DNA from: a virus
Virus record (IMG/VR): IMGVR_UViG_3300005336_000001
Span: 29,561 to 93,560 of that record
Direction: 5' to 3' (one strand)
DNA: 64,000 nt
In this document: in pieces, positions 35,725-64,000 of the stretch
How the letters are laid out: the number at the start of each line of letters is the position of its first letter
Position numbering within the stretch: the stretch's first letter is position 1
Notes under the pieces: model-generated
Databases searched by the model: none
What the model was told of the DNA's origin: nothing
What the model saw: the letters and a program-made list of their open reading frames with translations, nothing else
Position numbers and translations under genes: made by a program

Positions 35725-35948
35725 AGAGTGTTCCTTCCACGGGCTATGTTGATTAACATGTTGCGCACTCCAAATATTTTTTCAAGTTTGAAGATGTCAT
35801 GAAGTGCGATGCGTTGCCTCCCAGCCTCTATGTTGGCAAGTGCCGGGCGGCTCATTTTGGCTTTCTTAGCAAGGTCCTCCTGTCTCATACCTATTTCAAG
35901 TCTTGATTCCTTGATCGCTTTCCCCAACCTCTTGTAACATTGTTCCAT
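35721..35948 (-). CDS. XRE-family HTH regulator
   Basis: IKESR..GMRQEDLAKKAKMSRPALANIEAGRQ. Confidence 0.88.
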   Translation of the reverse strand: MEQCYKRLGKAIKESRLEIGMRQEDLAKKAKMSRPALANIEAGRQRIALHDIFKLEKIFGVRNMLINIARGRNTL

Positions 35949-37728
35949 TTTCTTTATCCTTTGCTCTCATAGCAGCAAGCATGGTTTGCCAATTGTCACC
36001 TGACAATGCTTGTAATCTTGCTCTTTGTTCTTTTGATAGAGCTTGCTTTTCATGGGCTCCTGTCCCTATGACTTCATCTACAATCTTCAGGACAGCGCCT
36101 GGCTTGTTTGTGTCCTTTAATTGCATTAACAGATTTTTGACTGCTGGAAAGAAAATTTCTGTAAATTCTTTATCTGTCATGTTTAACCTTCAACATACGT
36201 TTGATTGTTTCAGAGTGCGGACCTGCCAACGCCTTGAGCAGTTGTCTTTGTTTCTCAGTCAATGATTGTTCTTGAAGACGGATGTCAGGGTCCAAACCAA
36301 TAAGCAGTTTCAGTGGTTTGATATGTCCACTTCCGTTCCCAAAGCATTTACGTTTTGCGGGGAACCACAATTCAAGATCTTCTACTGACCAACGTTTCAT
36401 CCGTTTCATCATAGCTTCAATCCATGTCTGGCCCTGTAGGCCATGTGGATGGCATGGCCATGCTCACCATTGAACCTTTTCAAGAAAGTATCAAAGTTTT
36501 TAGGGAACCAATGGCTGCCAATCAGAAAAGATTTGTTTCCACGTAAAGTCTCATGGATGAGTATTCGGTCAGACTTGACCCTCACGTTGTGCAACTTGCA
36601 TAGGTATGTGGCTGTATGGAAATTTTCAGCATACTTGATTGAAGAAGTAATAATCAGATTGACCTTGCCCTTACGCCATGCGTCGAAATCACCGACTATA
36701 AACAAGTTACTATAATCCTTGATTTCAGACTTCTTGTATCCATTCCTTATCAAGGTTAGCCCAGTCTGCACACAATCCTCAGTGTAGACCAAGAAATCAA
36801 TATCCGTGAACATGGGCGGGGGTGAGCATACATACCGTGATCCGGCAGGGTGGATGGATGCATCTGGCAGGAGCCGTCTCAACTCATTCAACCGAGGCTT
36901 TATCGTAAGGTGGTAAGCCAATTTCTGTAACAAGCCCATTTCTGATCTCCATCATACGCTTGATCGTTGCCCCGTGCGGGCCAACCAGAGCTATAAGTTT
37001 GCTTTTTAGTTCGTCAGTCAGCTTTTGCTCCATGGTTGACATGTCAGGGTTCATACCAAGAAATATCCTAAGCTCCCTAGCCCTCACCAAAGGCCCCCTC
37101 TTGGTTTCCCAACTGTACAAGGCAGGGCCAAACAAACCACTGTCCCTAACAGGCTTCCAATACTTGTTGAACTCGTCACTGGTCATTTGCCACCTGCTTG
37201 ATCAAGATGATTTTGAGGAACACTTCAGCATGTGGACCTGCCAAACCAATCAATTGTGCCCTCAATTTGTCATCCAGTTCCATATTATTGGCATCAATAA
37301 AGGGATCACGGCCAAGAAGGCTTTTAATGGCTCTAGCCCTAGAAGGCATATTGTGGCGGTCGAACATGTTACGAAACAGCACACCATCCCGTACAGGCCG
37401 CCAATAACGCTCAATTTCGTCCTTAGTCATCAGAACCCTCCCTTGCTTCTATAGCCTTAAGAAGTGTCATCAGGTGTGGGCTATCGTGGAAGTCACGCAT
37501 CACTTCTAGCTTCTTGGCTGCTACCTCAGAAGTCTTGATGTATTGAACAAAGGTGAAAGGTTTCCTCCTCTTGATACTGATTTGAAAACGTTTCCACTGC
37601 CCCTTGGTAATTCCAGCCGTTTTCCTCAGTTTTTGCTGTTCTTCACGATGGGATTTGTGTGTATAGGAAATACCTCCTACTAAGCCTATCGTAGCTTCAT
37701 TCAAGAGACTTCTATCTATCTTAGGCAT
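35896..37728 (-). repeat. Cluster 1 of GPH-motif paralogues (6 CDS: 35896-36180, 36170-36412, 36409-36939, 36884-37186, 37176-37430, 37423-37728)
   Basis: C-termini LSGDNWQTMLAAM, LAGPHSETIKRM, FNGEHGHAIHMAY, LVGPHGATIKRM, LAGPHAEVFLKI, HDSPHLMTLLKAI. Confidence 0.8.
36409..36939 (-). CDS. Pol-beta-superfamily nucleotidyltransferase with C-terminal GPH-like motif
   Basis: AGSRY..TDIDFLV (hGS..DxD) signature. Confidence 0.75.
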   Translation of the reverse strand: MGLLQKLAYHLTIKPRLNELRRLLPDASIHPAGSRYVCSPPPMFTDIDFLVYTEDCVQTGLTLIRNGYKKSEIKDYSNLFIVGDFDAWRKGKVNLIITSSIKYAENFHTATYLCKLHNVRVKSDRILIHETLRGNKSFLIGSHWFPKNFDTFLKRFNGEHGHAIHMAYRARHGLKL

Positions 37729-38271
37729 GAGGAAGCTTCCTTCTACGCTTCTTATTGTAGTCTATAAATTGTCTAATTTAATGGTTTAGGCATAGTTCCG
37801 CTTTCCGCAATGTCGGGTATAGCTGCCTATACCATGCGGTTGCGACGGTTATATAGCACGTACTTCCATGGATACATTTTAACGTGTGCCGCACGGTCGG
37901 GCTAGAAGCTAACCTTCTAGTGTATATTGCCTCTACTCACGTAGATGCTTCCCTTAGAAGTCCATGGTATGGATCAGCCCAATAACCTGCAACTGACCCG
38001 GTACGGAAAGTCCCTGCCTCTGTACCCGTAGAAGTGTTTCACGCTTCCTTGGATAGCTTTGCGCGAGCAAAAGATACCCGTGCTCCGTCTTCAGGTGGTT
38101 TGTTGATGGAGGACTCAATCGGCCTAAGGCCGGGTCTAGCAAGCTTGCCGATTTGACCTCTGGCGGGTTTTGGCTTATCTAGGCCTCTGCCCTGCCGGGC
38201 TTTTCCAGTTCCTTGCTGTCATCAAGATCTGGATCGGAGCCGCTCCTGCTGAATACAGGGCGGCTCCACTT

Positions 38272-38592
38272 TTATACGCCGGGGGCAGCCCCAGATGTCA
38301 AGTGCCTGCCTAACCTGCGAACCGGGCCATGTTTTATCTCATAAGCCTTCAACAATGTTTTGAAGTGCGGGCTTTGAAGCATTCTGTACTTCGGCACCGC
38401 ATGTGCGTCAATCATCACCTTGTTACTGTTGATGTCCGAATAGTAAACAGCCCAAACATCGTGTCCCGTAAATTCATCTAATCCATTATCAAAGGTTGGC
38501 CGATTACAAAATTTCTTTTTAATTTTTAAAAATCTATCCCAATTGAGACAGGCTCTGAGCCATTCATCATAAGGCATTTCAACCTTGCTCAT
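38272..38592 (-). CDS. GPH-motif family protein
   Basis: MLQSPHFKTLLKAYEIKHG. Confidence 0.75.
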   Translation of the reverse strand: MSKVEMPYDEWLRACLNWDRFLKIKKKFCNRPTFDNGLDEFTGHDVWAVYYSDINSNKVMIDAHAVPKYRMLQSPHFKTLLKAYEIKHGPVRRLGRHLTSGAAPGV

Positions 38593-38873
38593 TTATTCCT
38601 CTTTTTGGTCCACGTGTTGGCAGGTACCTCACTGATGCCATCGCCAAGATCATACAGGAAGACGGTAACCATGAAATCCATCTTATAAGCAGTCAGCATT
38701 GCCAGCGACACGCTTATATCAGCGAATTCTTGATAACCAACCTCCTCACCTTTTCCCTGTTCAGCCTGATCGGCACCTGTACAGGAATTGTCATGCCATG
38801 TTGGTTCCATGATGGCCGTGACATTTTTCCATACGTAGGGCTTCTTGCGTCTATCAATCACGTTTCCGATCAT
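38589..38873 (-). CDS. Hypothetical protein
   Basis: Coupled ORF. Confidence 0.6.
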   Translation of the reverse strand: MIGNVIDRRKKPYVWKNVTAIMEPTWHDNSCTGADQAEQGKGEEVGYQEFADISVSLAMLTAYKMDFMVTVFLYDLGDGISEVPANTWTKKRNK

Positions 38874-39135
38874 TTTTTAACTCCCATGCTTTCAAGATAG
38901 TTTTCCAGTATGGCCCAGCCAACATGTTAAAACGTTGCTCCACCTCTTTAGAGGGCACACCTACAATTTTTTTACTATTATCTGTAAACACAAGCGATTC
39001 AATCCTACAACCTACGTATTCAAATACGTTGTATCGCGACATATCTGGATAGTGACATTCCCAATTTTCTATCGCAACGACAAAAGTCGTGTATAGGATT
39101 TTGCAGTCACACATAGGCCATTGTGTTGGTTTCAT
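38854..39135 (-). CDS. GPH-motif family protein
   Basis: MLAGPYWKTILKAWELK. Confidence 0.75.
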   Translation of the reverse strand: MKPTQWPMCDCKILYTTFVVAIENWECHYPDMSRYNVFEYVGCRIESLVFTDNSKKIVGVPSKEVEQRFNMLAGPYWKTILKAWELKNDRKRD

Positions 39136-39163
39136 GGTTTCACCAGTTGGAAAATTGACTAAA

Positions 39164-39194
39164 GAAAAACTGGGGATGATTGCTCATCCCCAGT
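39164..39194 (-). terminator. Rho-independent terminator
   Basis: ACUGGGGAUGA-GCAA-UCAUCCCCAGU followed by UUUUU. Confidence 0.85.
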
Positions 39195-39216
39195 ATCCCT
39201 TAACCGCCTAGAAATA

Positions 39217-39585
39217 TCAGGCGGTCACTTCTTCATCGGAATCGCTGAGGTCGTCAACGGCATCACCGTCATCCTCACCTTCATCCGAGTCAGCCTGACC
39301 ATCGAAATCCATCAAGCTCTTGATGAACTCGTCGTCGTTCGCCTTGCCCATGGTCAGTTCGCCCGACATGATGTCAGTCAGGGCACCGGCCAACGCCGAG
39401 CCGCCACGATTGAGGTTATCCACGCAATCATCGAGGTCGGCTTTTTCCTGATCGTTGATCAGGCCAGCCCGGTGCAGATCGCCGGTGTGAATGTGCTTCG
39501 CTTCGTCATAGCCGTTCGCCTCGGTCAGGCGAGCAGCGATGTGTGGGCGGTGCTTTGCAATGGTTGCCTTGAGGAGCTTTGACAT
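39217..39585 (-). CDS. Hypothetical protein with acidic tail
   Basis: AAAGGA RBS; own terminator. Confidence 0.7.
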   Translation of the reverse strand: MSKLLKATIAKHRPHIAARLTEANGYDEAKHIHTGDLHRAGLINDQEKADLDDCVDNLNRGGSALAGALTDIMSGELTMGKANDDEFIKSLMDFDGQADSDEGEDDGDAVDDLSDSDEEVTA

Positions 39586-40096
39586 GTGGTCTTTTCCTTT
39601 TGTGAGCATACCGATACAGGAAGGTCCTGCTCACAACCCTCCTGTTGAAGCGTAATGCTTCTCACTGAGGCTGATTAAAGCCTCAGGACAGAAACATTAT
39701 CTGATCTGCTGATATAGAAGGATGTTTCCAATTGTGATTCCAATAAAGATGTCAAATAAGGCAGCAATCATGAACCACAACATGATTTGCAATGCTCGTT
39801 TATCATTACTCATAGATAGACCCTTTCTGCCCCGGCTCATTGGAGCCTGTGCACGCAAGATTGTGATTAGTTGCTTTGGGGCAACGTTTGTTCCCGCAGT
39901 TGCGACACACCACCATGTGAACGGCAAGCTCGTTGCGCTCTTTGATACATTTGTGACAACCACATGCACCATTTGTGAGGGAAGCAAATGTACGTTCTTG
40001 CTTTTGCTGCATTTTCTTTAGACAGTCCAAGGCAACCTCCTATTAGGATTAATACTTTTGTGGTAGTTGAGAGTTCTCCAAAAGGAGGACCCCATT

Positions 40097-40393
40097 ATGT
40101 GGGATTGGTTCCAACGGAAGCGACGAGGGCACATCCTTCGCCGCATCGAACGAAAGGTGAATTGGCTCATGTCCAGTTTTGATGACCTTGCGGCAGCGCA
40201 AGCAGATACGCTTACCAAAGTGGCGGCAGTGAAGACTGACGTCGAAACTTTGCTTGCCCAGATCAAAAACATTCCGCCTGCTGGCTTAACGCCAGAGCAA
40301 CAGGCAGCGTTGGATCAGGCTGTGACCACTGCACAGAGCATCAATACTGCGCTCTCTGCGGTAGACACGGAGGTTCATCCTCCAGCGGCCTAA
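40097..40393 (+). CDS. Ala-rich helical protein on the opposite strand
   Basis: AAAGGAGG RBS; 98 aa. Confidence 0.7.
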   Translation: MWDWFQRKRRGHILRRIERKVNWLMSSFDDLAAAQADTLTKVAAVKTDVETLLAQIKNIPPAGLTPEQQAALDQAVTTAQSINTALSAVDTEVHPPAA

Positions 40394-40397
40394 TGCA

Positions 40398-40670
40398 CAA
40401 AAATGGCCACTGAGGAAACAGGAGGAGAATCCCAAACCTCAGTGGCCACCTTCTGCTGCACTTATAATGGTGAAAGGACCGAACCCATCATAAATGCGCG
40501 AACCGACGCCTTGGTAGGTTTCACTGTGAAGTCAAACCCGGAGGGCCAACAGTGACCACAGAACCTACCCTTGATTTATTCACCCGTTGACGTCGCGCGG
40601 CTGTAACTGATCTCACCGTCACTGCGGCCTCGGGTCCAAACTATGCGTAAACTTTTGACACCGCAACAGG
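40398..40670 (-). ncRNA. Putative multi-hairpin sRNA with anti-Shine-Dalgarno loops
   Basis: Gap without a long ORF; three stem-loops; the last is a 12-bp stem followed by UUUUU whose loop holds UUCUCCUCCUGUUU. Confidence 0.55.
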
Positions 40671-41068
40671 AAATCAAAAGTCTTTGGATTTGAACGCTCT
40701 TGATGCGGCCTTTTCAGCCAGTTCCTCATATGAATAGGGCCCAATCAATTGGCCCACTGGTTCATCATCTTCATCAATGAACTGGTAGTAATATCCAAGC
40801 ATTTGGTCCCCGTCTTCATCAAAGAAAGGCATTTCAGAGGGGACAAACTCATGGATAAGGGCATTGCATACCGCCATCATGTTTCCTTCATTTTACAGCC
40901 TTTACCAAGGCTGACTGTTGGCCGACGACGGCGTATATCAAATACCTCCCACCGCCTACGGCTATTTTAGTTTTGGCAAGCGCCTCAACTTCCGCAAGGG
41001 ATTTACATTCATCCCTCGTATAATGCCCGACACCGTCTTTCTTGACGAGAGTAAAGTAGTCGGCATGT

Positions 41069-41380
41069 TCACAGAACCAATCGTCCCTTTCTTGATACGT
41101 TTTGAAGTCTGGCATCAGCTTCCCTCCTTTTGATTAACAGTGCTTGATAAATTGCCCAACCATGCGGACCGGCGATTGCTTTGCACTTTGTAAGATGCGG
41201 CTTGAGTAAGTCGATCCATAACCCATACTGACTGTTTATTTCAGGAATTTCACCGCTGAATAGCCAGCATAAGTATGGTTTTCCTCTCGCTCTTCTATAA
41301 TTAGGCACGACGCGACCTTGATCATACCAGTGCTTGAGTGTGCTACAGGCATCTTCAATTATGTCAGTGAATGTTTCCAT
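41069..41380 (-). CDS. GPH-motif family protein
   Basis: AIAGPHGWAIYQALLIKR; AGGAG RBS. Confidence 0.75.
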   Translation of the reverse strand: METFTDIIEDACSTLKHWYDQGRVVPNYRRARGKPYLCWLFSGEIPEINSQYGLWIDLLKPHLTKCKAIAGPHGWAIYQALLIKRREADARLQNVSRKGRLVL

Positions 41381-41480
41381 GTTCAGCTCCTGAAAATTGA
41401 CAAACGAAAGCCCCCTCACCAGCATCACTTGGCGAGGGGGCAGATTAGTTCAGGTGCTCGGGAGGCTAAACCTAAACTAA

Positions 41481-42011
41481 TTACTTCTTCATCTTCAGGA
41501 AATAACGTGTGACCGAACGTTGGCCTTCACGCTCCTCCTTAACACGCTTGACCTCATGGCCAGCTTCTTCAAGGCCATTGAGGACGTTCAGTTGGACCGA
41601 ACCAACCGCTTCCTTGACCTCTTCAAGAGTAGCACCCGCTTTGGCGGCATAGAGCGCCACAGCTTGAGACTTGGCGCTGCCTTCACGGAAGCCCCATGCG
41701 TCCTTCTTCACTCCCTCGGCCTTTGGCTTGGCAACCTTGGGCTTTTCTGACCCTTTAGCGGCCTTTACCGTGGCCTTGGGTGCGGCCTTGGCCTTGGCCG
41801 CTACCTTGACCGCCTTTGCCACCTTAGGCTTGCCAGCGGCCTTTACAGGCGGTTTAGCCGCCCCATTTGCCTTGACCAGTGCCTTTGCCTTTGCCTTGGC
41901 CTTTGGGGCCGTCTCTTCCATTGCTTCACTCATGTACATAAACTCTGCTTTGTTGTTGGCATCCCGTTTAAGGAAAGTGGGGATGTCAAGGGGTTCAGGC
42001 ACTGTGCCCAT
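41481..42011 (-). CDS. Histone H1-like K/A-rich protein with C-terminal winged-helix-like domain
   Basis: KAKAKA/PKVAKA tracts; DAWGFREGSAK..GATLEEVKE. Confidence 0.75.
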   Translation of the reverse strand: MGTVPEPLDIPTFLKRDANNKAEFMYMSEAMEETAPKAKAKAKALVKANGAAKPPVKAAGKPKVAKAVKVAAKAKAAPKATVKAAKGSEKPKVAKPKAEGVKKDAWGFREGSAKSQAVALYAAKAGATLEEVKEAVGSVQLNVLNGLEEAGHEVKRVKEEREGQRSVTRYFLKMKK

Positions 42012-42411
42012 TACTAGGTTCCCTTTCCTCAGATTACAGAGCTAAAGAACTGGAACCGCTAAGTCAAGCGGGATTCCAATTCATTTAGAGGTTTTTGGTT
42101 TCAAACTATTTTGGATTACTTTACTTCGTTGAGAATTGGCTCACCTTTGGCCAAAATCTCTCGAGCACCCTCAAGTCCGCCCTCTACACCTTCACCACAA
42201 AGCGTGCAATTAGGTTCTGCAATGCCTTGCTCCACTTGATCCTTGAGGCATTCAAAGACCTCAAGCCCATCATCTGTGCCGGGCAAGATATCATTGCATA
42301 TGGGACATTTACGACAATAATTCATGTCTTTTGTTGACATGTTTCTCCCCCCTGTTGAAGTGTAGTGCTTCCCGGAGGGCTGACCTAAGCCAGCCCTCGA
42401 AGCTGCACTCG

Positions 42412-42678: not shown

Positions 42679-42758
42679 ACGTTCTCTCTCCTGTTTTAAC
42701 ACTGAAGCCTTTAGAGCTTCGTGCTGGGGCTTGAGAAGCCCCAGTGTCGAAGCTCTAA

Positions 42759-45148: not shown

Positions 45149-46333
45149 TTAACCCGTCTCTGACACATGGATGCTGGTGCCAAACGGGGCACGTGCAACC
45201 AGTTGGTCGAAATATTGTGACGGACCGTAGACTGCCCACATGACTGGGCAACCGGGGTCTTCACCATATTCGTTAACCTGAAGGTCAGTCAGGTAGATGA
45301 CGCAACTGGCATCAGGATGATTTTTGCTGAGCCAATTAAACGAGTCACGGAAATCAGTTCCGCCACCCGTGTATTGACCAATGGTAACCATATCGCCCTG
45401 CACGAATTCATCAACGTGTTGAACCCGTGTGTCGGCGTAGGCCACCACGATCATGTCAGCGGTGCCCTGATCCAACGCACCACCGACTTCACTGAGCATT
45501 TCAAGCGCCATCTTGTGACTGACGGAACCTGAAACATCAATAAAGAACACCAACTTGTTGAGCCTGTCTGACACATAGCCCGGCATCAGAACACCCAATG
45601 CCGCCGAGCGCCTGTTGGGGCGAGCCCAACTGGTAGCCTTTGACATTGATTGATCGATGAAGCGCATGGTCAGATCACGCCATGACACCTTTGGTTTGCT
45701 CAATTCCGCGATCAAGTTCCTGAGTGATCCCGGTATTTGGCCAGCATTTTGTCCTGCGGCAACCTGTACCGCAGCGCGCACTGACATTTCCCATTCATGC
45801 TTAGTTGCTTCCTTCTTATCAGCATTGCCGGGAGCATCCATCACACCACCACACCCACCGGGATCGGTGCCGTCACCAAAGCTATCCACGTACACTTTTT
45901 CAAAAGTGTCATAGATTTCTTCAGTGGTCATTCCCTTGTACTTCTTGTCAATGCAACACTTGAAGTTTTTTCCACTAATCTCACGATCATGGATTAACTT
46001 GAAGCCTGCCTCCTGAAGATCAAGGTTGATGACGAAATCACCTGCAATGTTCCACGCTTTGGGATCGCGCGTACCACGGCGAGTGAAATGCTGGAAGCAA
46101 CAGTGCATGACTTCGTGCGCTACCAAGAACTCCAACTCACGATCGTCCAATTGATTGACGAAATTGGGATTGTAGAACATGGACACGCCGTCAACACCGG
46201 CGGTTGGCAGATCATAACTTTCCACCAACCGCAATTGTAGTGCAAGGAAGCCAAAGAAACCGTTGCTCACCAGCAAACTTGTGCGGGCGGACACCATTTT
46301 CTCTAAAGCTCCTTTGTCCTTTATCTTAGCCAT
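45149..46333 (-). CDS. DUF2201-type metallopeptidase-vWA fusion
   Basis: TAGVDG, AHEVMH (HExxH), NIAGDFVIN; IDVSGS, GGTDF, YLTD. Confidence 0.9.
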   Translation of the reverse strand: MAKIKDKGALEKMVSARTSLLVSNGFFGFLALQLRLVESYDLPTAGVDGVSMFYNPNFVNQLDDRELEFLVAHEVMHCCFQHFTRRGTRDPKAWNIAGDFVINLDLQEAGFKLIHDREISGKNFKCCIDKKYKGMTTEEIYDTFEKVYVDSFGDGTDPGGCGGVMDAPGNADKKEATKHEWEMSVRAAVQVAAGQNAGQIPGSLRNLIAELSKPKVSWRDLTMRFIDQSMSKATSWARPNRRSAALGVLMPGYVSDRLNKLVFFIDVSGSVSHKMALEMLSEVGGALDQGTADMIVVAYADTRVQHVDEFVQGDMVTIGQYTGGGTDFRDSFNWLSKNHPDASCVIYLTDLQVNEYGEDPGCPVMWAVYGPSQYFDQLVARAPFGTSIHVSETG

Positions 46334-46467
46334 ATTTTCTCCTCCTGTTTTTGAAGCATAACACTTCACTAAAAAGATGAGCCCCCACACAGAGGTAGGT
46401 CAAACTTGTATGGGGGCGATGCCTTACGTGTTTCCACGTCTTACAGGCACATCTTTTTAAAGCAGAG

Positions 46468-47592: not shown

Positions 47593-48618
47593 CTAAATGT
47601 GCAGCGACTTGTTGTTCTTGGCCCACGTCACAAACGTGGGGGTATCGCACAACGTGCTGTCACGCTTGGTAGCGTCCAGCACAACCACGGTGCTGAAGTC
47701 CGCACCAAAACCATCCCGGTTGATGTATTTGTAGATGGCCGGGAAAGTGTCCTTGGTCGTGCTGCGTGCTAACAACGCACTGAGGGCGTACCGGCCAGCC
47801 GGTGCATCGGGGATATCAGCTTTCATCGGGTTGGACAAGATGTCCTCCAAGTCCGGCAACTCAGCCGTCTTGAAGTAGGTCTCAACCTCCAACGCCGCGC
47901 CCTCACCGACAATAGCTGCCACCAGTTTGAAACGCATGCCCTCCGGTGCGTCGAACACCTTCGAAGCACTTGCCCAAGAACGCGGTGACGGGAAGGCCAA
48001 CAAGTCAGCTCCTTCCATGCTGTGGATGAGGTTGGGACGGTACTTGATGAAACCGATCAACATCGGATCGATACCATTCAAGTTCGCCCAATGCCCCCAG
48101 CATTCAGCATCAGCCCGGATGTGAACATGTGCGAAGCGGTTTGCCAAAGCTGATGACAGCGATTGCGCCGCAGCACGATCTTCCCTCCGGTTGCCAGCGG
48201 CTACCGGCCACCACCCATCGGGTAACTTGTAATCGCCGATCTGACGATCCAAGATCACCCGGTAGATGCATGACTGCAACTGACGCGGTGCGTCACTGAG
48301 TTCGTCAAACGCGATAATGCCCTTCGGGCCATCACGGTTCACGTCAGGCCAGAAGGCAGCCCGCAACCATACTGCCAGTTTTTTCTCGAGGTCAGGCACC
48401 GGGATGCCTGTGAGATCTTCAGGCAACATGGTGCCCACACGGACGTCGATAAAGCCGGACTCATCCTCAGCAGCAAGCTGTTTCATGATGTCCGACTTGC
48501 CGATGCCCGGCGCACTGTGGAAGTATGTGGGAATGTTTTTTGACCTGAAGATGCGGGCAATATCCTTTGCCGTCTCAATGGTCTCAGTGCGTACCCCACT
48601 TGTTACGTTTTCACTCAT
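47593..48618 (-). CDS. MoxR-like AAA+ ATPase
   Basis: SAPGIGKS, DLTGIP, FDEL, AAGNR, ALANRF, SPRSW. Confidence 0.9.
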   Translation of the reverse strand: MSENVTSGVRTETIETAKDIARIFRSKNIPTYFHSAPGIGKSDIMKQLAAEDESGFIDVRVGTMLPEDLTGIPVPDLEKKLAVWLRAAFWPDVNRDGPKGIIAFDELSDAPRQLQSCIYRVILDRQIGDYKLPDGWWPVAAGNRREDRAAAQSLSSALANRFAHVHIRADAECWGHWANLNGIDPMLIGFIKYRPNLIHSMEGADLLAFPSPRSWASASKVFDAPEGMRFKLVAAIVGEGAALEVETYFKTAELPDLEDILSNPMKADIPDAPAGRYALSALLARSTTKDTFPAIYKYINRDGFGADFSTVVVLDATKRDSTLCDTPTFVTWAKNNKSLHI

Positions 48619-48698
48619 AGTTCTCTCCTCCTGTTTAGGAATGAAGCATTGTCGCTTCTTACTACTGTCACCTTTATGGCGACAGTAGGGTAGAAACG

Positions 48699-49034
48699 TC
48701 ACTTCATCGCAAGTTCGCTTTCACGGATCAGATCAGATCTGATCACGTCTGGGAGTGCCAACCGTGCACGTTCCATTGCCGCTCCGTAAGTACGGGGATG
48801 GTTCATGGCAATGTCGTTCACGACCTGTGGGATGACAAAATCATCATCATCGATGGTGGCTTCGGTCAAGCCAACCAACACTTTCCGTGCTTTTGGGAAA
48901 GCAGCTTTCAACGATTGAGCCAGCAAACATGAACGAGGATTGCCCGCATCATAGATGCCGTCGTAAGGTTTTGCCTGAAGCCATTTGATCAGGCTCTCCA
49001 CGTCCTGACGTGTGGCCGGTTTTTCATATACCAT
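48699..49034 (-). CDS. Hypothetical protein
   Basis: RBS element. Confidence 0.65.
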   Translation of the reverse strand: MVYEKPATRQDVESLIKWLQAKPYDGIYDAGNPRSCLLAQSLKAAFPKARKVLVGLTEATIDDDDFVIPQVVNDIAMNHPRTYGAAMERARLALPDVIRSDLIRESELAMK

Positions 49035-54277: not shown

Positions 54278-54900
54278 TTATTCATCGCCCTGTGTAGAAA
54301 CATTCTTGTAGCCATGCTTTGCTGCGATGGCTTTCAAGATTGTTAGAACGTGTGGGCCTCTTGCTTGCGTAAGTGATATCCTTTTTGATATTAGATCCTC
54401 TTTACACCTGCGCCAGCTATCCAACCCATCACCCCATGGTTCATCTGGAAAACCAAAGGTTTGTGCGACTAGCAACAAAGCATCGTGCAAACTCGCCGTC
54501 TGCCCATTGGCACGTATATGTCTGAGGGCATAAATTACCCCCAACATGTAATCATCTTTTTTATCTATGGCCATTTGGGATACTTGCTCAAGTCAACCCC
54601 ACGGATGGTTGCCAGTGCGTACACCAGTATTTTTCCATGAGGGCCAGCCAATGCTTGGAGCATCAGTGCTCGTTTTGCATCACGAGGCTTTTGACCATGT
54701 GATGCAGCAGTGTGGAAGTGTTGAGATGCTGAATTGCGCCCCTTGAGATCCTTTACTTTGTATCCCAACAAGGCACGCAACACGGATGGACTTCCACGCT
54801 TGTCACCCATCCGTCTTGGCATATTGCCCAAGGCGGCATGCCAAATCTCAGTCCAATCAGCACGTTCAGGGATGTGACGTCTTGGATTACCTCTAGGCAT
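54278..54900 (-). repeat. Two GPH-motif paralogues (54278-54574, 54565-54900)
   Basis: ARGPHVLTILKAIAAKHG; LAGPHGKILVYALATIRG. Confidence 0.75.
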
Positions 54901-57155
54901 CGCCTTAACCGTCAGTGATGCGTGTGATTGGGATCGTCCACGTCCACGCCACAAGCACCGCATATCATCGGCATCTTGTTGACCAACGGGAACTGCCCTA
55001 CTGGCTTATCACACGTGGAGCAATGAATGCCCAACGTAGATGAATCCATCAGCCCAACCTCAAGGCTGTCCTTGCGACCTTCCTGCAAGCAAGACTTGCA
55101 GTGAAAATACATCTTCATTTGTTGCTCCACTTCTCGGTGATGGCATCAAATGCGGTGATGAGGTCTTCAGCATCATTGTCCTCGTCAATGCCGTACTCAA
55201 CAGCATAGCCGTCAAGGTTGTTCAACACGACAAGCATCTGATCCTTACGAGTGTCAGCATTTGCTTTTTCAAACAAAGCTAACCATTCATCTTTGCTTAT
55301 ACTCATGTTTTCTCCTCCTGTTTGAACATAGTGTTCACCACGGAAGCTTGTTAAAGCTTCCGGACGTCAACACTAAGATTTAGCATTTTTCATTTGTTCT
55401 TCAGACAACAGATGAAAACACTTGTCTCCCTCAAACGTGGACAACCAAATTTCACCAGCACCGGGCTCTTCAGAAAGAACATCTGGTTGATATTGCCCCA
55501 GATACTTTCCATCTTTGTCATATTTGTAACGGGCGGAACCATCATCCCGTTCAAACCCAGTTTTAGTCTTAATGATAAATTCACGCATGACCTTTATCCT
55601 CCTGTTGAAGCAAATGCTTCTGCCTGCACTGAGATTAGTCAGTGCAGGATAGAAACATTAACCCCTGTGTTTTTTTAACATAGGTTCAATAGTTGAGATG
55701 CCACGATGCCAAGCAGCCAATACCTCTATGCCCGTATAAGGTTGTTTAGGATACAACAACTGGGCCGCTGCCTGCAAATGTTCCACAGCTTTTAAAGTTG
55801 CTTCCAACTCATTAGCATCACCGCGTATTTCATCTACCGTAAGTGGTTTAGTCATGATCTTGATCCTCCTGTTTGATATCAATGGGTATCGGTGGAAGGC
55901 CCTAATCACATGGTGCAGCCGGTCAGTTTTGCTTCAAACACAGCATTCTAAACGACATATACCCTGCATCTATCAACAGGTGTTGGGGCCACCCTCCTGA
56001 TGCAGTCATCCCTAATCTATCGCTGGGCTTGGGGGCTGTTGGTTGCGATAGTTAGTTGACTAGGGCCTTCCGCCGATAGCCATTATTGTAATTCTTATTC
56101 CTGCAACTTTGCAGGCTTCTAAGATTGAATGATGATAGCAGGGGAAGCCGTTAAGCTTCCCCCACTTTCACCGTTTGTAAACAGGCACGGACATTGCTGT
56201 CCGTGTGCACTTGCAATTAAGCAAGTGCAAGGAGGAGATATATGTACCCATGGTTATTGAATACGCTTAATGACGTGGGCCACCTCTCATTGCCTGCAAT
56301 TAGGTTATGTATCTTTCAAGCCCTGTGACTTAACAGGGTCAACGGCTCTCATGTCCGTTGTGCTTCATTGCTTTGAAGGAGTTGATACAAATACGCAGGG
56401 GCTCTGACTTCCCTACTAGCTCACACGGTTCATGCTTTCTACTTCTAACAACAGCCATGAACGTCACATCCACGTACCCGCGCTATCTCTAGCGGCGTTG
56501 GGTTTGGAACCCCAAACGAATTATACATATGGATTGCTTGTGCAGCATTTTATATCAACCATGCTCAAAGCGCCTAGCAGGCTCATTGGTGCGGTTTGGC
56601 TTGAATTGGGGGTTAGGTAGGCCGTTGGCAAACAAACGCGCCAGCGGCCTTTAAAACACGTTATAGGCCCTATCAAACCAATGCCTTAGCTTTGGGCGCA
56701 ATAATTCCATGGGTACGGCGGCCCATTCATTGCCTGACTTTGTGCTTACCACCGCTTCCCCGTTCTAATCACCGGGTACAACGTTCCTAGGCAATTGCCC
56801 CATAGGGGGGCGTCAGACAAACTTGCGCTCAGCGCGCGGGCAAACGACCGTGACGGGGATGGATGTACGTCCTAAGTGCCACATATTTCAGCGGTAGGTT
56901 ACAGTGGAAACTGCTTGTTAGCGCAACAGCCCCAAAGTGACATTAACCCAATCGCCTGATGCAGCGGGCTTCAAGTGCCCATTTGCAGAGGAGTCATCAA
57001 CCCGTGTTTATTGACCTGTTAGGCACCGTATTTGCCACACCGCCTAAGATATGACCGGTAGCACCGGGTGCAAAATTCGCGCTCAAAGTAGGCGCAAATC
57101 ACCCGGTAGTGTGCCAACGGTAGCCCAACATAATGGCTTGCCAAGGAAGTTCATG

Positions 57156-58842
57156 TCACTCGTCAAGTTTATTTGGACTTCTGGTTAACGGCGTTTCCAG
57201 ACCGCGCTTCACATGCCAAATCGTGAAGAACGCATGTCCATTAGGCCCTATAAGCTTCTCACAGAATGCAATGTCGTTTGCATTGAAATTCCTGATCATT
57301 GTGTGTTTGTCTGGGTAATCACACATGAATGCCAGATACTTTGGACCAGCCCAATTGGATGGCAACGGTCTGTAGCTGTCAAAGAACGCATAGACTTTGC
57401 CTCTTAGTCGGCTTTCTTCATCCGTTTGTTGTAATGTTCTTGTTCTGCGGTCGTACTGATATTTAACTATCCCGCTCATGTTGTTTGTCCTCTTCCCGCG
57501 CTATGGCCTGTTGCAGAAGAACATTATAAACAAGAAATCCGTTTGGCCCAAGCATCTTGTCAAGCAACTCTTCTGATTTGTTGGACCAAAACTCGTCCAT
57601 TATCAATGTGTTTTCATATCCAAGTATCCACGCAATGTGCTTCTTGTTTAAATATGGAAATGGTTGAACGAGGATTGAATCTATCTTGCCAGCACCCTTC
57701 CACCGCCAAAGCTTTTTATTGAGTACGTACAGTTTTACCCCCATCATAGCTGTTTGTGCTCCAATTGACGCCGCATTACCCATGTTTGGCTTCCAACGCT
57801 TTGAAGATAGTCAAACCATTGGAGCCAAGCAGCATCAGGGTAAGTTTATCTATTTTTTCTTTATCCTTGGCACGTGTCAATTCCTCAACTGTTTTATATT
57901 CCAAAAGTTTCAAGATAATTTCATCAATTGCATTTGGGACAACGAGAATTGGTGGAGCAGACTGTCCACAGTTTATTTGCCCACTCCCCCACCATACAGC
58001 CAACACATTATAAAGATCAGCAGTGAGTGCACAAAATTCCTGTCGTATGAAGCTGTTCATGTTTGATCCCGATTGGCCTCCAACGCTTTGCACACAGCAA
58101 CGGTATGAGCCGAGGCTAACATTCTGAGTGCTCTGTCTATCTTGCCATCCAGTTCATAACTATGGGCAGTAATGAATAACCAATAGTCGGCATAGCCAAA
58201 CAACCATGGCAGATACCGACCGGGGTCTTGCGTGACGCCGCAAACGACAAGCCTCTGGCCTGCCGCCATACGCAATTCAGCTCTGGTACCAAATGACATC
58301 TACCCAAGCCCCCGTTTGATCTTCATGGCGACCCATATTGCATCTCCATGCGGACCAAGGAGCAGTTCTAATTGCCTGCTGACAGGTCCATTGTCTTTTT
58401 GGAGGTAATGTGTTTCCTGCATGTGCTTGTAATCCCTAAAACCGAGCATTTTACCAAGCAACGTGCCACTCTCGCCTCCTTGTTCCCAAGGTAGCCCTTT
58501 ATTGTTGAAATGCTTCATTGAGACATCTACACGCAAGGCCAGTTTGTAATCCGTATCACCATCATCTAAGAAGTAAACAGACATCTATCTGACCTCACGC
58601 TTGACAAGCATGGCTTTGAAGAGGGTGAAACTGTGATCAGAGGTGAGAAGTAATTTGATTTTGGCTTCTATCTCAGGGGTATCTGTTTTATCATTGATGA
58701 AGTCATACCAATCCTCAAAACCAAATGCCTCAGCAACCTTGGCCTCAGCAATCCTGGCTTTTTTTAATTCATTGTAGCTGCCGGGGAATAGACGTTCGAC
58801 CAAGCTTATCAGCCGCCAATACCTTTTCATGTCAGTTCTCAT
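57156..58842 (-). repeat. Cluster 2 of GPH-motif paralogues (6 CDS: 57156-57479, 57463-57783, 57776-58060, 58057-58299, 58300-58584, 58585-58842)
   Basis: LIGPNGHAF, MLGPNGFLV, LLGSNGLTIFKAL, LASAHTVAVCKAL, LLGPHGDAIWVAM, LTSDHSFTLFKAM. Confidence 0.8.
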
Positions 58843-59480
58843 CTATCTAACCCCAAATCAAAACTCAAACCACGGTAACCCGTAAAACAAAACAACGGCA
58901 AGGAACAACAGTAACTTCTATCCAGTAGATTAGGCCGCATTTAAGCAAACACAGATTAAAACCAATCCAATCTTCAGATAGCAATCATCACCAGACGCAA
59001 ATAAAATAGACAAATGAAACAGGCTTATGGAAACATAGTTACAGGACGATCACTGATCAATTGATAGATGTGTCAGATGAATCTATCAGCCAACATTGGC
59101 GTATCAGACAGTCTAAATACCCTTGTAGACAAAGACAAACATAGATCATCCATAGAAGTGAACTTCTGCATACTTGTGGATATGGATAGATGAGGCTATT
59201 AGCCCATAAGCACATACTAAAGCGCTCGGAGACAACCCGCGAGACATGGCAGACAAACAAGAGCAAGACGATTTATAATTGCTTCTTCATAGATGAGGAG
59301 GATAGATGAGATGAGCAGATGTCTAATCGTCTGCTCTTTTTATACTTCTTGGTCTTACTCTTCCATGATTAACTCAAATGAAGAAGTAACCTAAGAAGAC
59401 AATGCAAAGAACAAAGCTAAGAAGATAAGGTGTGGAAGTAAGAAGTAAGAATAACCTTATTTAGTCAGGTATTGGGGGAC

Positions 59481-59522
59481 GAAAAAACCGCCCAACCCGG
59501 TCAAGGGCTGGACGGTGTTTTT
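59481..59522. terminator. Probable bidirectional terminator
   Basis: AAAAA-ACCGCCCAACCC-GGTCAA-GGGCTGGACGGT-GTTTTT. Confidence 0.65.
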
Positions 59523-59743
59523 CAAACGCGGGTGGCAAAATCCGCTTCTAGCTTTTGCTCAATGGCACGCCAGCTAAAGCCAAATTGTTCTTGTAGTGGG
59601 CCATAACCTAATTGCTTTTGCACGAGCGCCAGCAATGCCAGCAATTCACCATTGGTGAACCGGAGTTCAAAAGGTTTTGCATCGCCTTGTGAAAGTGAGC
59701 GTTCAAGATTTGTCATGGTGGAAGACTTTCATTTGAGCCAATG

Positions 59744-59770
59744 AAAAGGGCGGCATTGCTGCCGCCCTTT
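59744..59770. terminator. Rho-independent terminator after 59784..60320
   Basis: AAAAGGGCGGC-ATTGCT-GCCGCCCTTTT. Confidence 0.85.
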
Positions 59771-59783
59771 ATTGAGTTGACGC

Positions 59784-60320
59784 TTAGGCTTGCACCGTGG
59801 CGTCAGCCGTATCAGGCACCGTAACGGTGACGCTGGCGGCCTCACTGGTGCCAGTAACCGGTTGAACCGGGGTATTGGCCTGCTTGGCGTTGCGCGTACC
59901 CTTGGCCTTTGCTTTGGCCTTGGGTTCACCCTCAGCCGCACCAGCCGCCTCGGCCTTGGCCAGCGCCTTCTCAGCGCGTTCAATGCGCTGCTTGCCCTTG
60001 GCCGTCAGTTCCAGCTTGTAGCAGGTGTGCCCATCCACCTTGGGCGCGGCCACCCGCTTCAAAAATGCATCGGTAATGAAACCGCGCATTTTGTTGAGCT
60101 GCGGAGCGCCGCAAGCGATCTGCATTTGCGCCGCAGTGATACCCGTTTCACGCAGGCCCATGGCAATAGCCAGTGCCTGCTTGCCGGGCCGAGCGCCCAG
60201 CTTGTGAACGGCATCAAGGGTTTCAGCCGTCGGCTTGGGACCGAGCAGCTTGGCCTTTTCACCGGACCAGCCCTTGAAAGTGTCAGCGTAGTGGGTCGCA
60301 GCATTGTTTGAGTTTGTCAT
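59784..60320 (-). CDS. K/A-rich putative DNA-binding protein (winged-helix-like)
   Basis: GAAAGG RBS; GARPGKQALAIAM..GIT..GAPQLN..YKLELTAKGK; KAKAKAK tail. Confidence 0.7.
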   Translation of the reverse strand: MTNSNNAATHYADTFKGWSGEKAKLLGPKPTAETLDAVHKLGARPGKQALAIAMGLRETGITAAQMQIACGAPQLNKMRGFITDAFLKRVAAPKVDGHTCYKLELTAKGKQRIERAEKALAKAEAAGAAEGEPKAKAKAKGTRNAKQANTPVQPVTGTSEAASVTVTVPDTADATVQA

Positions 60321-60956
60321 GGAAGTGACCTTTCACAGAAATGCCAAAGCCTAGGGACGGTTTGCCCCTAGGTCAATTAGCGGGTTAACAATGAGAAACA
60401 GCCCGTCAACGCAACGCGCGTCAACATGCCAAACATAAGCAAACCACCACCAAATTCAAGTGATACAAGTCACACATCTAAAGTTTTTTCATATTTTCAT
60501 TATCACGTATTGTTACAGCGCAAGCACGCTTCCACGCATTCACTTCTATCCATGCATCCAGAGCATAGCAATAGACGTTCATTTCATGTTGCCAAGGCCG
60601 CCCAATAGCCATCCATGGAAGTGGCATCTATCCACCTACCTCAAGAAATAACTCACCAGACGCCAAATGTCGCGGTGTAGGATAGAAGCAACACCCTGTC
60701 TCATCGTAGGGACTAGATAGATGCATCCATCCTTGTATACCAGACGAGTGCATAGAAGCGACAGGTGTCCCAAGACAACCATGAAGAACAAAGCTAAGAG
60801 GATCAATGAAGCCACACACCTATGGAAAAAGGCTAAGAGGATAAGGTGACTCGCTCAGGTATCAGGAAAAACGTCCAGATGACAAAATGGTCCCCCTCCC
60901 CCCATGCCATGGCTATATCCTCCGCCTACGATGCACATAAAAAATTCAAGATGCTT

Positions 60957-63900
60957 CTACGGAAGTGTTTTGCTTGAGTAGTACTTGACCAACCACGCTC
61001 TCACATAGGTAGAAGCATGTGGACCCATAATGGCATCAAAGCGACGCTTCCCGGTGATGCTCAATTCAAATATGTCAATGTCTTCCGGATCATCAATGTC
61101 GTCTCGAAATACAACCCGGTTTTGTGGACTAAGATACGTCCTGAAGTCTGGTGCTACTAGAAAAAAATCACCGGGCAAGTCATAGACAATTTGCCAATAA
61201 AGACACTCTGCTTTTAGAAACTGCAATCCAGTTACTTCCATGATTCTCGTCTCCTCCCCTTAGGACCCACACCAAATATTTGAGATGCTTCTTAGGAAGT
61301 AGCATGACGCACCAACCATGCTTTTATCAGCGCGTAGGCATTACTTCTGTTCAGGCACAGTTCTATCAGCTTTGCGCCTTCATCAGATACGGTCACCACA
61401 TGTTCACTGGGTCTTTGCATGGTTGTCATTTGTGGCACTATTGCCGAAGTCAGTTTTTTGAACTCGTTATAGCCAGATTCATTTGGATACTTCTCACTAT
61501 TGTACATTACATGATGATAGTGGTTGAAAGCCCAAAAAAATTTGACTCTGGGTATGATTGGCATTTCTTGCTTCTATCCATCTACTGATGTGTAGGGGTC
61601 TGCCCCATTCAGTTCCATGACTTTTGCCACGGCCCTGTAATGTGGTCCTTTCAGCGCCTGTACCCTCTTGCATACTGCTTCTGGGAAGTCCCAATCGCCA
61701 TCAGGATTCATTCCTGGTCTTTTCAGGCCAATGAAATGCCAGAAGTAAAAACCTTTGCCGGTGCCGCTGGGGAAGTACACTTTCATAAAATTTGTGTAGG
61801 CGGCACTTACATCTTGGTCGCTTTGGATCATTTGTGAATTCCTGCCTTGGATAGATAATTTTTATTTCAGTTACTTCTTGGGTATGTTTACTTCTAGAGC
61901 CTTAAGCAAGGTGTGACAATGTGGGCCATTCAACATGGCAATCTTGCGGGCCGCTTCTATTGACATGTCGTATCCATCATATGGCACATACATCTTGTTC
62001 TTGGCACCAAGCCAGCCCCAGAATGGGTACCAGTGGCGTTCAGACTTGCCCCAGTATTCAAACCAGCGTGCTTTGGCTGTTTCTACGTCTCGCTTCTTTA
62101 CCTTCATTTTTGACCCTTAGAAGTACGTGGCAATGTAGGCTTTGGTTATTGTGTTGGAATGTGGCCCTGTCAGGTATTGAATTTTCCTGCTGAGTACTTC
62201 GTCACACTGACCTTCGTGCACGAGATAACAAAGGCGTGAGAAGTCCATTTGTAGGTAGTCTTCAAGCTGCGGCCAATTGCCCCCTGAATTGTTCCAGTTG
62301 GCTGCTACCTGAAATATGTCGCTGAAGGATGGTTGTGTCACTTCTTGTACTTTGCTTCTATGGCCTTGAACAGGGTCAAGGTGGTTTTAAGGTCTGGGCT
62401 TGATCGCAATATGAGACGTATCTTGGCAACGTGCATGGGTGAGAGGCCTATTTTCCCACATTGACGATATCTCTGTATTTGTTTGGACGTCACACCAATC
62501 CTTTTGAGGAGCATCTCATCGCAAGAAGTGGAACTGTAGAAGTTCATGGCTGCGTGCCTGATGATGTCGGCTTTTATTTTCATTTTTGCTTCCGTGCAAA
62601 ATAGGCTTTCACTAGTGTCGGCCCATGCGGGCCAACCAGTTGCCTGAACCTGATGTTTTGCTCTTCATCCGTTTTGTCATCAAAACCAATGAATTGCCTA
62701 TAGTGAGACAGCCCATCTGGATAGAAAATGCCTTCTGGCACGTTGTTCCACCAGACTGCCCATGCTGATTTCCCCCATGTTTTTGACACAATCATTTCCA
62801 TTTCTCCTATGGAAGCAATGTTTATATTCAAAGCGGTTTCAAATTTCCATGTTTTGCGAACCATGCCTTGATGATTGTCACGCTATGCGGCCCATTCAGT
62901 TGATTTATTTTGCGTCCTGCATCTTTATCTACCAACATCATGTCTATGTTTACCGAATATTGTGGATCAGGATCTCCTATATAAGCCAAAAAAGTTTCAC
63001 GAGTATGGTAAGGTGCGTACAGATCCCATTTGTCAGCCGCTAATTTCCACTCAAGGTAACCTATCTCAATTTTGTTTCCCACGCTTGGCCTCCTTTGCTT
63101 TAAGAATAGCGTACCAATGTGGTGAATTGAGAAGCATGATCTTTGCCACAGCACTCGGGCGCATCATTAATGGTTCACCACGCATAGAACGAAGTAATCC
63201 AATTCTGGTGACACCCAAATAGCTCGCAAAACTGCCTGTGCCATTATTGTTCATGTTTCCTGTAAATTTTATCCACCTGTTGAAAGCTTCTGCGAAGTGA
63301 ACTCGTTCAACAGGGATTGATTTAATCTTGTTTGGCAAGATACACCCTTATTTCCATGGATTGTTGACGTACCATGCTTTGATGAAAGCGTGGTAGTTGT
63401 GGCCTGATAGCAAAGTAATCCGTTTATGAATGCTCGGGAATACTTCAATAAATTCATCTTCACCTGACCACGCATCTATTGATGTTGGATTGGTATCACC
63501 GGGGTCTATCAGCCTGCAAAAACGCTCCATGGTCACTTCACAATCAATTCCATAGTGAAACTCAATCCAGTTTTCCCAAGCTTTTTCTATCTTGGCCTGT
63601 GCAATCTTCATCATGTCAATCTTGTTTGGCAAGATACACCTTGATCATTGTTTTGTGGTTGTCATTCAATAACATATTTATTCTTTTGCACTGTTCCTCA
63701 GAAATTGCATTGTTGTTTGGATCGCTATAAAATCTGCCCAAGGTAAATCCTAGATAGGCTTCTAGTTGACCATTCAATTCTGTGCCAACTGCATCCTGCC
63801 AATTAAGGATAGCTTTATGAATGTTGAACTGAGTTATCCTCATTTCTTGATCCTTGTTTTGTGGACTGAGATATAAGCTTTCCAATTGTCACTTAGAAGC

Positions 63901-64000
63901 ATACCCAACCTTTTCAAACCATCGTTGTTGACTTTGAATGAGCCAGTCCAAGTGGTGGATATGGCATCCATAGGATCTGTTTTTAGAAATTTCCAAAAAG
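60957..64000 (-). repeat. Cluster 3 of GPH-motif paralogues (12 CDS: 60957-61241, 61292-61564, 61574-61831, 61871-62107, 62117-62341, 62338-62583, 62580-62864, 62828-63082, 63066-63338, 63348-63632, 63616-63843, partial 63840-64000)
   Basis: IMGPHASTYVRAW, LKGPHYRAVAKV, LNGPHCHTLLKAL, LTGPHSNTITKAY, LVGPHGPTLVKAY, LNGPHSVTIIKAW, LNSPHWYAILKAK, LSGHNYHAFIKAW, LLSDNWKAYI. Confidence 0.85.

Follow-up and report, generated by a model that had tools for sequence, protein, structure and literature searches.

A tandem array of 32 small genes in a 93.6-kb phage genome and a predicted domain built around a conserved G-P-H hairpin

The gene array and its layout

The stretch of DNA analysed here, referred to below as the window, comprises 64,000 nucleotides, namely bases 29,561-93,560 of one virus contig of 93,560 bp from an uncultured phage (IMG/VR record IMGVR_UViG_3300005336_000001), and it carries a large set of small genes whose products end in a common motif, L-x-G-P-H-x2-T-I-I-K-A. 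An initial annotation, made from the letters of the window, had listed 29 such open reading frames (ORFs) in tandem clusters that run past the window end, and had proposed that the motif is a docking or sorting tag attached to unrelated protein bodies. Every one of these 29 exists at the place given, on the minus strand, in clusters at 35.9-39.1, 41.1, 54.3-55.0, 57.2-58.8, and 61.0-64.0 kb (Table 1). The contig itself is probably a circular assembly, because its first and last 50 bases are identical, although the terminal 100 bases are not. The array does continue across this genome junction: the last window member, which is cut by the window end, is completed on the other side, and three further members are found beyond it on the minus strand (locus L001). 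The family thus amounts to 32 genes and 9,747 nt, which is 10.4% of the genome, with a median product length of 94 aa and, as had been described, 70-110 aa in most cases (28 of 32).

Neighbouring genes are tightly packed, with spacings mostly of -4 to -17 or 0 to 9, so that they overlap or abut. The rank distance between each gene and its closest paralogue averages 6.3, compared to 11.0 +/- 1.4 in shuffled gene order, showing that the family expanded by tandem duplication; with 32 copies in five clusters on one strand, and with nearest paralogues that are mostly neighbours, it has the features of a lineage-specific tandem expansion. The duplications appear to be old, because even the best paralogue pairs are merely 24-40% identical. 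A motif-less 94-aa ORF also lies within the first array, overlapping its neighbours by 4 and 20 nt.

The shared C-terminal motif

The motif was found to be real by several measures. A 30-position C-terminal hidden Markov model (HMM) built on the 29 window members, a check that had been proposed at the outset, recovers the three junction members, which were not used for training, at E 1e-7 to 1e-4. Furthermore, a profile of 124 metagenomic proteins that contains no row from this phage, called the foreign profile below, finds 27 of the 32 members at E<=1e-3; members 36409, 57156, and 57463 are marginal or unmatched with such profiles. A lack of significance against shuffled controls had been named as one result that would speak against the motif. 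In this control, for which a slightly broader profile was used (134 rows, ten of them from this phage, derived from the alignment A2 described below), 33 ORF matches were obtained in the real genome and none in each of 15 triplet-shuffled genomes; because the scanned sequence contained the junction twice, the 33 matches represent 29 distinct ORFs.

The codons used at the conserved residues are diverse, with six for Leu, four for Gly, three for Pro, and two for His, so the conservation lies at the protein level, under selection on the protein, and not in a DNA repeat. Diverse codons, together with tails of 3-25 residues after the motif, rule out that the motif is a DNA repeat or the ribosome-binding site of the next gene.

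The predicted domain

The paralogue profile (29 sequences) was searched against 1.84 billion representative proteins, and 449 metagenomic matches were obtained at E<=1e-3. The best 150 of the 449 are nearly all 70-110 aa long and cover profile positions ~5-87 of 100, that is, the whole length, and ten relatives that were looked up are unnamed metagenomic singletons. Four proteins of 143-174 aa (P0004, P0011, P0014, and P0021) hold two complete family units in tandem, and therefore neighbouring copies can fuse. In an alignment of 135 matches (A2), of which 11 rows come from this phage and the other 124 constitute the foreign profile, the conserved columns reach beyond the C-terminus into the N-terminal half. 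They comprise V/I7 in the N-terminal strand; A15 (94%), N/R18, and W19 (77%) in helix 1; F31, F34, L35, and G36 (86%) in helix 2; K58, I59, and L62 (90%) in helix 3; G/S64, P65 (93%), and H66 (86%) in the turn; and T/A69, I70, K72 (82%), A73 (79%), A76, and K77 in helix 4. Positions 37-50 are the least conserved part and vary in length.

AlphaFold2 (AF2), run on A2 with the 84-aa form of the member at 62828-63082, predicts one compact domain (pLDDT 90.5, pTM 0.80) with a strand at residues 4-8, helices at 9-22 and 28-35, short strands at 41-42 and 48-52, a helix at 53-62, the G-P-H turn, and a last helix at 67-78. From the order of these elements in the model, the shared motif is predicted to be a basic hairpin of helix 3, turn, and helix 4. 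The [FY]-[LI]-G turn that had been reported about 25 aa upstream of the motif is likewise real, as seen from the conservation of F34, L35, and G36, and it is modelled as the end of helix 2. By our reading of the helix periodicity, most of the conserved hairpin residues occupy hydrophobic positions of helices 3 and 4 and plausibly belong to the fold core, and the polar conserved residues K58, H66, K72, and K/R77, together with the mostly basic residue 68, would form a basic stripe that could serve as a shared surface. The 30-residue hairpin block has a mean net charge of +2.4 and is never negative; the N-terminal parts range from -9 to +15. The median pI is 9.2, and ~18% of the relatives are acidic.

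Searches of known families returned little. No Pfam-A or PHROG family is matched at cut-off in the 29 window members and the 135 aligned relatives, and none is common to more than two members; isolated sub-threshold matches are those of SAM_SMF to 62338 (E 1.4e-4) and of DUF4240 to 58585 (E 3.2e-4). A sequence-profile search of the PDB gave nothing at E<=10, a Foldseek search of the small-domain model against PDB and BFVD gave nothing at E<=1e-3, and the ESM Atlas gave no usable match.

The structure comparisons do bring up one candidate relationship, in which the family would be a panel of degenerate helix-turn-helix (HTH) domains of the XRE/lambda-repressor type, acting as DNA- or RNA-binding regulators or as nucleoid-associated proteins. 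The best structure matches are of the XRE type and CUT, with the C-terminal domain of MqsA at Z 5.2 (rmsd 2.8 over 62 residues) and further VIA-align rows for HigA2 (Z 4.5), RsaL (3.9), 2ppx (3.4), and CUT (4.7). However, a Z of 5.2 is below the guide value of 7-8 for noise in structure alignment, and the Foldseek search described above was empty. The basic median pI would suit nucleic acid binding, although the acidic relatives would not, and the zinc-ribbon expansion of phage G offers a precedent (PMC7824862). On the sequence level, F31-x2-F34-L35-G36 fits, in our reading, the hydrophobic-hydrophobic-Gly pattern with which HTH helix 2 ends, and the linkers of 63066, 62338, and 37423 read like an intact helix-turn-helix; yet no HTH Pfam family is matched in the 29 and 135 sequences, neither at E<=1 nor, for the most HTH-like members, at E<=10, and hhalign against the window's own HTH_3 protein gives only 0.5%. 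Moreover, the region where a recognition helix would lie shows the lowest conservation in the family and varies in length, and it is a loop or a hairpin with short strands in the model. We consider this relationship rather improbable.

Relatedness of the N-terminal parts

The N-terminal parts had been described as unrelated, and in pairwise comparison they do appear so. BLAST of these parts gave one clearly significant pair only (36884/37176), and therefore pairwise comparison could not settle their relatedness; a leave-one-out profile built from the paralogues alone was also weak, with 5 of 32 clear. Profile comparison shows otherwise for most members. All hairpin columns were removed from the 124-row foreign profile, and each N-terminus was compared with 500 shuffles of itself: 13 of the 32 members were beaten by none of the shuffles, 15 were reached by at most 5 (1%), and 18 by at most 25 (5%). 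The N-termini that beat every shuffle are those of 38272, 38854, most of the 61.3-64 kb cluster, and two members past the junction.

Subgroup alignments, enlarged with orthologues from related contigs, were then compared profile to profile. Group IIb (57-58.8 kb and 41069) matches 78 columns of the foreign profile, among them that of the helix 1 Trp, at 96.9% probability, whereas group IIa (four genes at 35.9-37.4 kb) matches it at 97.8% over the last 50 columns only, from L-L-G to the end. The N-termini of IIa follow the pattern MT-x-E-E-x3-Y-W-x-P-A-R. Comparison of the N-termini of IIa, IIb, and IIc with the family N-terminus by hhalign was not significant, aligning only the LLG/FLG spot, and a homologue search with 36884 returned the protein itself only.

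Collectively, full-length homology is seen for roughly two thirds of the members, the N-terminal domain is common to at least 18-25 of them, and in our reading all small members have in common at least the linker, the hairpin, and the helix 2 end. From the compact AF2 domain, the conserved N-terminal columns, and the full-length matches of the relatives, it is well supported that the bodies are mostly diverged versions of one domain and form one domain family. The idea of a tag on unrelated modules thus fails for most members, in which the motif is the best-conserved part of one domain of ~85 aa, and survives for the nucleotidyltransferase fusion described next and possibly for the four IIa genes. 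A simple domain family with one known full-length fold, the other result that had been named at the outset as speaking against a portable tag, is largely what is observed, though the fold is not a known one.

A nucleotidyltransferase that carries the hairpin

The ORF at 36409-36939 encodes an enzyme-like protein, in which residues 29-135 match phrog_15166 (E 4.5e-19). Its 28 orthologues are 43-97% identical, several of them lying on 93-94 kb contigs, and the signature G33-S34...D46-I-D48 is invariant in all 28. The AF2 model (pLDDT 90.4, pTM 0.86) retrieves Cid1 and other terminal uridylyl transferases (TUTases) by Foldseek (E 9e-5, prob 1.0). The pattern hG[GS]-x(9-13)-D-h-[DE]-h and the alpha/beta fold of nucleotidyltransferases (NTases) are both present, and the protein thus has a Pol-beta-type nucleotidyltransferase fold and is a putative enzyme. 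Over its last 33 residues it aligns to the family, and there to the hairpin alone (hhalign 94.8%, E 5.5e-8), and this tail is kept in 28 of 28 orthologues. In Agrobacterium, Xanthomonas, Pseudomonas, and Stenotrophomonas phages, the similarity of the homologues is confined to residues ~29-136; the protein of phage Milano stops before the tail, and no ORF with the motif was seen within 4 kb of the Milano gene. Because the nucleotidyltransferase carries the hairpin alone and its homologues in cultured phages lack the tail, the hairpin has been grafted onto an unrelated enzyme, and hence has been portable, at least once.

These features are in line with an alternative in which the ~33-residue basic helix-GPH-helix is an autonomous module that brings the varied heads and the nucleotidyltransferase to a common partner, be it a host hub, nucleic acid, or each other, with the rest of each protein as variable payload. 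The uniformly basic hairpin on bodies of varied charge is consistent with such a docking role, as is the fact that the IIa members have only their last ~50 residues in common with the family. The same direction is indicated by P0016, whose last 24 residues are identical to those of 38854 while the rest is 34% identical, which points either to rates that differ strongly along the protein or to recombination among family genes. However, the hairpin is integral to the compact domain of the modelled member, N-terminal positions are as conserved as hairpin positions, and most hairpin residues are of the hydrophobic core type in our reading. The bodies, at 30-60 aa, are also too short for independent modules, and no longer fused form, that is, no protein of at least 196 aa with the family domain, was found, which is weak evidence. 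An autonomous docking role is therefore judged unlikely, if still worth considering. Less probable again is the related proposal that the G-P-H hairpin is a pairing or docking module that joins ~30 variable adaptors and the hairpin-tagged nucleotidyltransferase, mutually or at one hub; if true, it would represent a combinatorial targeting system, for example one of adaptors that direct or gate the nucleotidylation of host or rival targets.

Genomic context and expression

Plus-strand genes fill the genome from 1.6 to 35.7 kb and are taken, from gene sizes and not from family searches, as the structural arm. The minus-strand genes extend leftward from ~1.5 kb, across the junction, as far as the helicase, the polymerase, and other replication-side genes, and the family heads this leftward arm at the divergent junction and recurs inside it. 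The overlapping and abutting runs on the strand and arm of replication, starting at the divergent junction, suggest early expression as polycistronic units.

This placement also bears on the idea that the motif is a head packaging or ejection tag, by which the small proteins would be packaged in or ejected from the virion and the motif would be a capsid-targeting or ejection signal. Phage internal proteins that are targeted by short signals, such as the internal proteins of T4, provide a general precedent. The known capsid-targeting signals, however, are N-terminal and cleaved, unlike a C-terminal folded hairpin, which moreover belongs to the folded core in the model, and the small genes belong to the replication-side arm, with the presumed structural genes on the other strand. 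The idea found no support, and such a role seems highly improbable.

The member nearest the divergent junction, a 224-aa ORF, has the family domain at residues ~118-193, followed by a hydrophobic, tail-anchor-like C-terminus; its N-terminal part is hydrophobic too. The true start may be an internal ATG, and the product could be a membrane-anchored variant. Two regulators are encoded directly downstream of the first array, and the HTH_3 gene among them is kept beside the array in L003 with 54% identity. Other neighbours in the window include a protein with DUF2201 domains, a protein related to a P-loop (GIGKS) protein of L008, and three tRNAs predicted by ARAGORN, one of which has the anticodon CUA (labelled tRNA-Pyl, amber-reading) and the others being tRNA-Pro(UGG) and tRNA-Gln(UUG). 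The first 2,000 bases of the window have a GC content of 66%, compared to ~47% elsewhere, with Pro-rich reading frames, and this GC-rich stretch lies within a 914-aa plus-strand gene.

Table 1. Family members and neighbouring features. Positions are those of the window unless marked otherwise; E values are from the foreign profile unless another source is given; trained HMM, the 30-position C-terminal HMM; N-terminus, shuffles (of 500) reaching the real score with the foreign N-terminal-only profile.
Position	Strand	Length (aa)	Feature	Evidence or remark
35896-36180	-	94	member, subgroup IIa, variant motif L-S-G-D-N-W	E 2.3e-6, C-terminal part only; IIa profile has 50 columns in common with family
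36170-36412	-	80	member, subgroup IIa	E 6.1e-7
36409-36939	-	176	fusion: predicted Pol-beta-type nucleotidyltransferase domain and family hairpin alone	E 0.026 (marginal)
36884-37186	-	100	member, subgroup IIa	E 7.7e-9; N-terminus 38% identical to 37176
37176-37430	-	84	member, subgroup IIa	E 3.5e-5
37423-37728	-	101	member, divergent N-terminus	E 1e-4, hairpin only
38272-38592	-	106	member, canonical full-length	E 4.5e-21; N-terminus alone z 21.8, 0/500
38589-38873	-	94	motif-less ORF	no Pfam or PHROG match
38854-39135	-	93	member, canonical full-length	E 9e-16; N-terminus 0/500
41069-41428	-	119 (103 from internal ATG, as in P0005)	member	E 2.7e-4; part of IIb profile (78 columns aligned)
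54278-54574	-	98	member	E 2e-4; L008 orthologue 37% identical
54565-54963	-	132	member, very basic N-terminal extension, pI 11.6	trained HMM E 8.5e-8; foreign profile only E 0.099; L008 orthologue 43% identical
57156-57479	-	107	member, G-P-N-G variant, marginal	trained HMM E 4.7e-9; foreign profile E 0.068
57463-57783	-	106	member, G-P-N-G variant, weakest of all	trained HMM E 0.0019; no foreign-profile match; 29% identical to L008 member, E 1e-14
57776-58093	-	105	member	E 0.002
58057-58299	-	80	member	E 1.1e-5
58300-58584	-	94	member, lead sequence of IIb profile	E 1.5e-5
58585-58842	-	85	member	E 4.1e-5
60957-61241	-	94	member, acidic	E 5.7e-6 over residues 2-90
61292-61564	-	90	member, canonical	E 2.2e-9; N-terminus 0/500
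61574-61831	-	85	member, canonical	E 1.1e-16; N-terminus 0/500
61871-62107	-	78	member, canonical	E 3.7e-21; N-terminus 0/500
62117-62341	-	74	member, canonical	E 4.3e-9; N-terminus 5/500
62338-62583	-	81	member, canonical; linker resembles HTH recognition helix	E 6e-4; N-terminus 0/500; no HTH Pfam match
62580-62864	-	94	member, canonical	E 9.1e-10; N-terminus 3/500
62828-63154	-	108 (84 from GTG at 63082)	member, protein modelled	E 4e-18
63066-63338	-	90	member, canonical	E 4.5e-19; N-terminus 0/500
63348-63632	-	94	member, canonical	E 1.4e-15; N-terminus 0/500
63616-63885	-	89	member, canonical	E 2.4e-16; N-terminus 0/500
63840-64000 (cut by window end)	-	82 when completed across junction	member	E 6.2e-16
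131-394 (L001, past window)	-		member	E 5.4e-14
375-638 (L001, past window)	-		member	E 7.7e-20
638-1312 (L001, past window)	-	224	member nearest divergent junction	E 3.8e-7
35440-35724	-	94	regulator	sigma-70 region 4 just below cut-off, E 1.7e-5, 24.8 vs 25.7 bits
35721-35948	-	75	regulator, HTH_3 protein	E 1.8e-12 (HTH_3)
45149-46390	-	413	DUF2201_N (putative metallopeptidase) and DUF2201 VWA-like domain	E 5e-41 (DUF2201_N)
47593-48702		369	P-loop protein relative	no Pfam match; 78% identical to the L008 protein
25112-25182	-		tRNA	ARAGORN
32534-32610	-		tRNA	ARAGORN
35012-35088	-		tRNA	ARAGORN
1-2000			GC-rich stretch	within gene at genome 29402-32146 (plus strand)

Relatives and evolution

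Related IMG/VR contigs were found by a degenerate DNA pattern, and similar arrays occur on soil-type phage contigs of three lineages. L004 and L006 are of the same lineage, L004 being 98.4% identical over 6.6 kb; L003, L009, and L011 represent a second one, where 6.6 kb contain 9 members and L011 lies in a 92,293-bp contig; and L008 and L010 represent a third with 7 members. Between lineages, core proteins are 64-78% identical, whereas the identity of family members is 28-43%, and many of them have no clear one-to-one orthologue, showing that the family copies diverge much faster than core genes. In the two strains that are 98.4% identical, all nine compared members are intact, and the substitutions between them are too few for dN/dS.

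Outside these contigs, megablast of 57-64 kb gave no match, nor did tblastn of the foreign member P0020 against GenBank phages. The polymerase of this phage is at most 32% identical to those of cultured phages, so that no cultured phage appears to be close. A narrow pattern scan for prophage copies in 185,579 bacterial and archaeal species genomes gave only chance-level matches of 15-18 residues.

A proposed role for the family

The explanation that we favour, with a little better than an even chance of being right, is that the 32 genes are fast-diverging tandem copies of one domain of ~85 residues, which combines a scaffold with a variable surface and acts as an early intracellular binder, and that the hairpin is first of all structure. 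The single-family, single-domain part of this explanation has good support. As to the binder function, it is a guess that we hold to be somewhat less probable than not, and both the early timing and the setting of specificity by variable regions are likewise proposals.

In this proposal, the domain would be a small cytoplasmic one, consisting of a strand, helix 1, helix 2 ending in F-L-G, a linker of variable length, a strand, helix 3, the G-P-H turn, and helix 4. The positively charged hairpin of helices 3 and 4 would be the core on which the N-terminal helices pack, and the outer face of helix 1 and the linker, varying in sequence and length, would provide the specificity elements. Expressed early and polycistronically from the replication-side arm, the copies would make up a repertoire in which every small protein binds or modulates a target of its own, from the host or the phage, while the cell is being taken over, and the common hairpin would act as scaffold and possibly as a shared contact surface.

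Several observations weigh against this explanation. The N-terminus alone is unrecognised by the foreign N-terminal profile in 14 of the 32 members, and the first ~35 residues of the IIa proteins have no detectable homology to the family. The hairpin of the nucleotidyltransferase indicates that it can exist without the rest of the domain, which would suit a docking role better than a pure core role. In addition, scanning the junction for promoters and terminators gave nothing beyond what shuffled sequence gave, and the early timing is for this reason drawn from gene order only.

Phages tend to place functions in host takeover and counter-defence among expanded sets of small early genes. An unnamed family that has a confident predicted structure, clearly matched neither by a solved structure nor by a predicted viral one, and that occurs as hundreds of metagenomic relatives and as 32 copies in one mid-sized genome, therefore offers a defined and testable set of candidates. 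The core hairpin that it has in common with a phage nucleotidyltransferase provides one concrete lead to a partner or pathway.

Comparison with known systems

The nearest counterparts to the family in structure, by a weak best match, are the XRE/lambda-repressor-like HTH domains, such as the C-terminal domain of MqsA (3fmy) and HigA2 (5j9i), which resemble it in size, in the order of four helices, and in a helix 2 that ends hydrophobic-hydrophobic-Gly. The two differ in that no sequence or profile similarity is found between them and in that the family has an extra N-terminal strand and a variable loop with short strands at the position of the recognition helix. To our knowledge, the conserved G-P-H turn is not an XRE feature either.

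The fused enzyme resembles the phrog_15166 group of minimal Pol-beta nucleotidyltransferases of Agrobacterium (Milano, 7-7-1), Xanthomonas, and Pseudomonas phages over residues 29-135, in GS...DxD, and in the Cid1/TUTase-like fold. It is distinguished from them by the added C-terminal hairpin, which is common to 31 small proteins and found only in this phage group.

The scale of the paralogue expansion had been called unusual for phages. Precedents exist, in that phages G and 121Q have tandem arrays of >30 similar small genes (Hua et al. 2017, PMC5646251), and Bacillus phage G has a ~35-copy expansion of a zinc ribbon, proposed to act as transcription factors or structural DNA binders (Iyer et al. 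2021, PMC7824862). In these virulent phages, as here, one small protein has been expanded to about 30-35 tandem copies, which is attributed to tandem duplication. However, phages G and 121Q are jumbo phages (>200 kb by the definition of the cited papers), whereas the present genome has 93.6 kb, for which such a scale does remain unusual and because of which the array costs as much as 10.4% of the genome. Moreover, their copies are described as very similar, whereas those found here are old and diverged, and the zinc ribbon of phage G is a different domain from that of this family, which matches no zinc ribbon, Pfam, or PHROG. Arrays of small paralogues in phages are thus an already known phenomenon, within which the genes described here represent a new family that has no Pfam, PHROG, or PDB relative or confident fold match, takes up a large share of a mid-sized genome, and has its hairpin in common with a nucleotidyltransferase.

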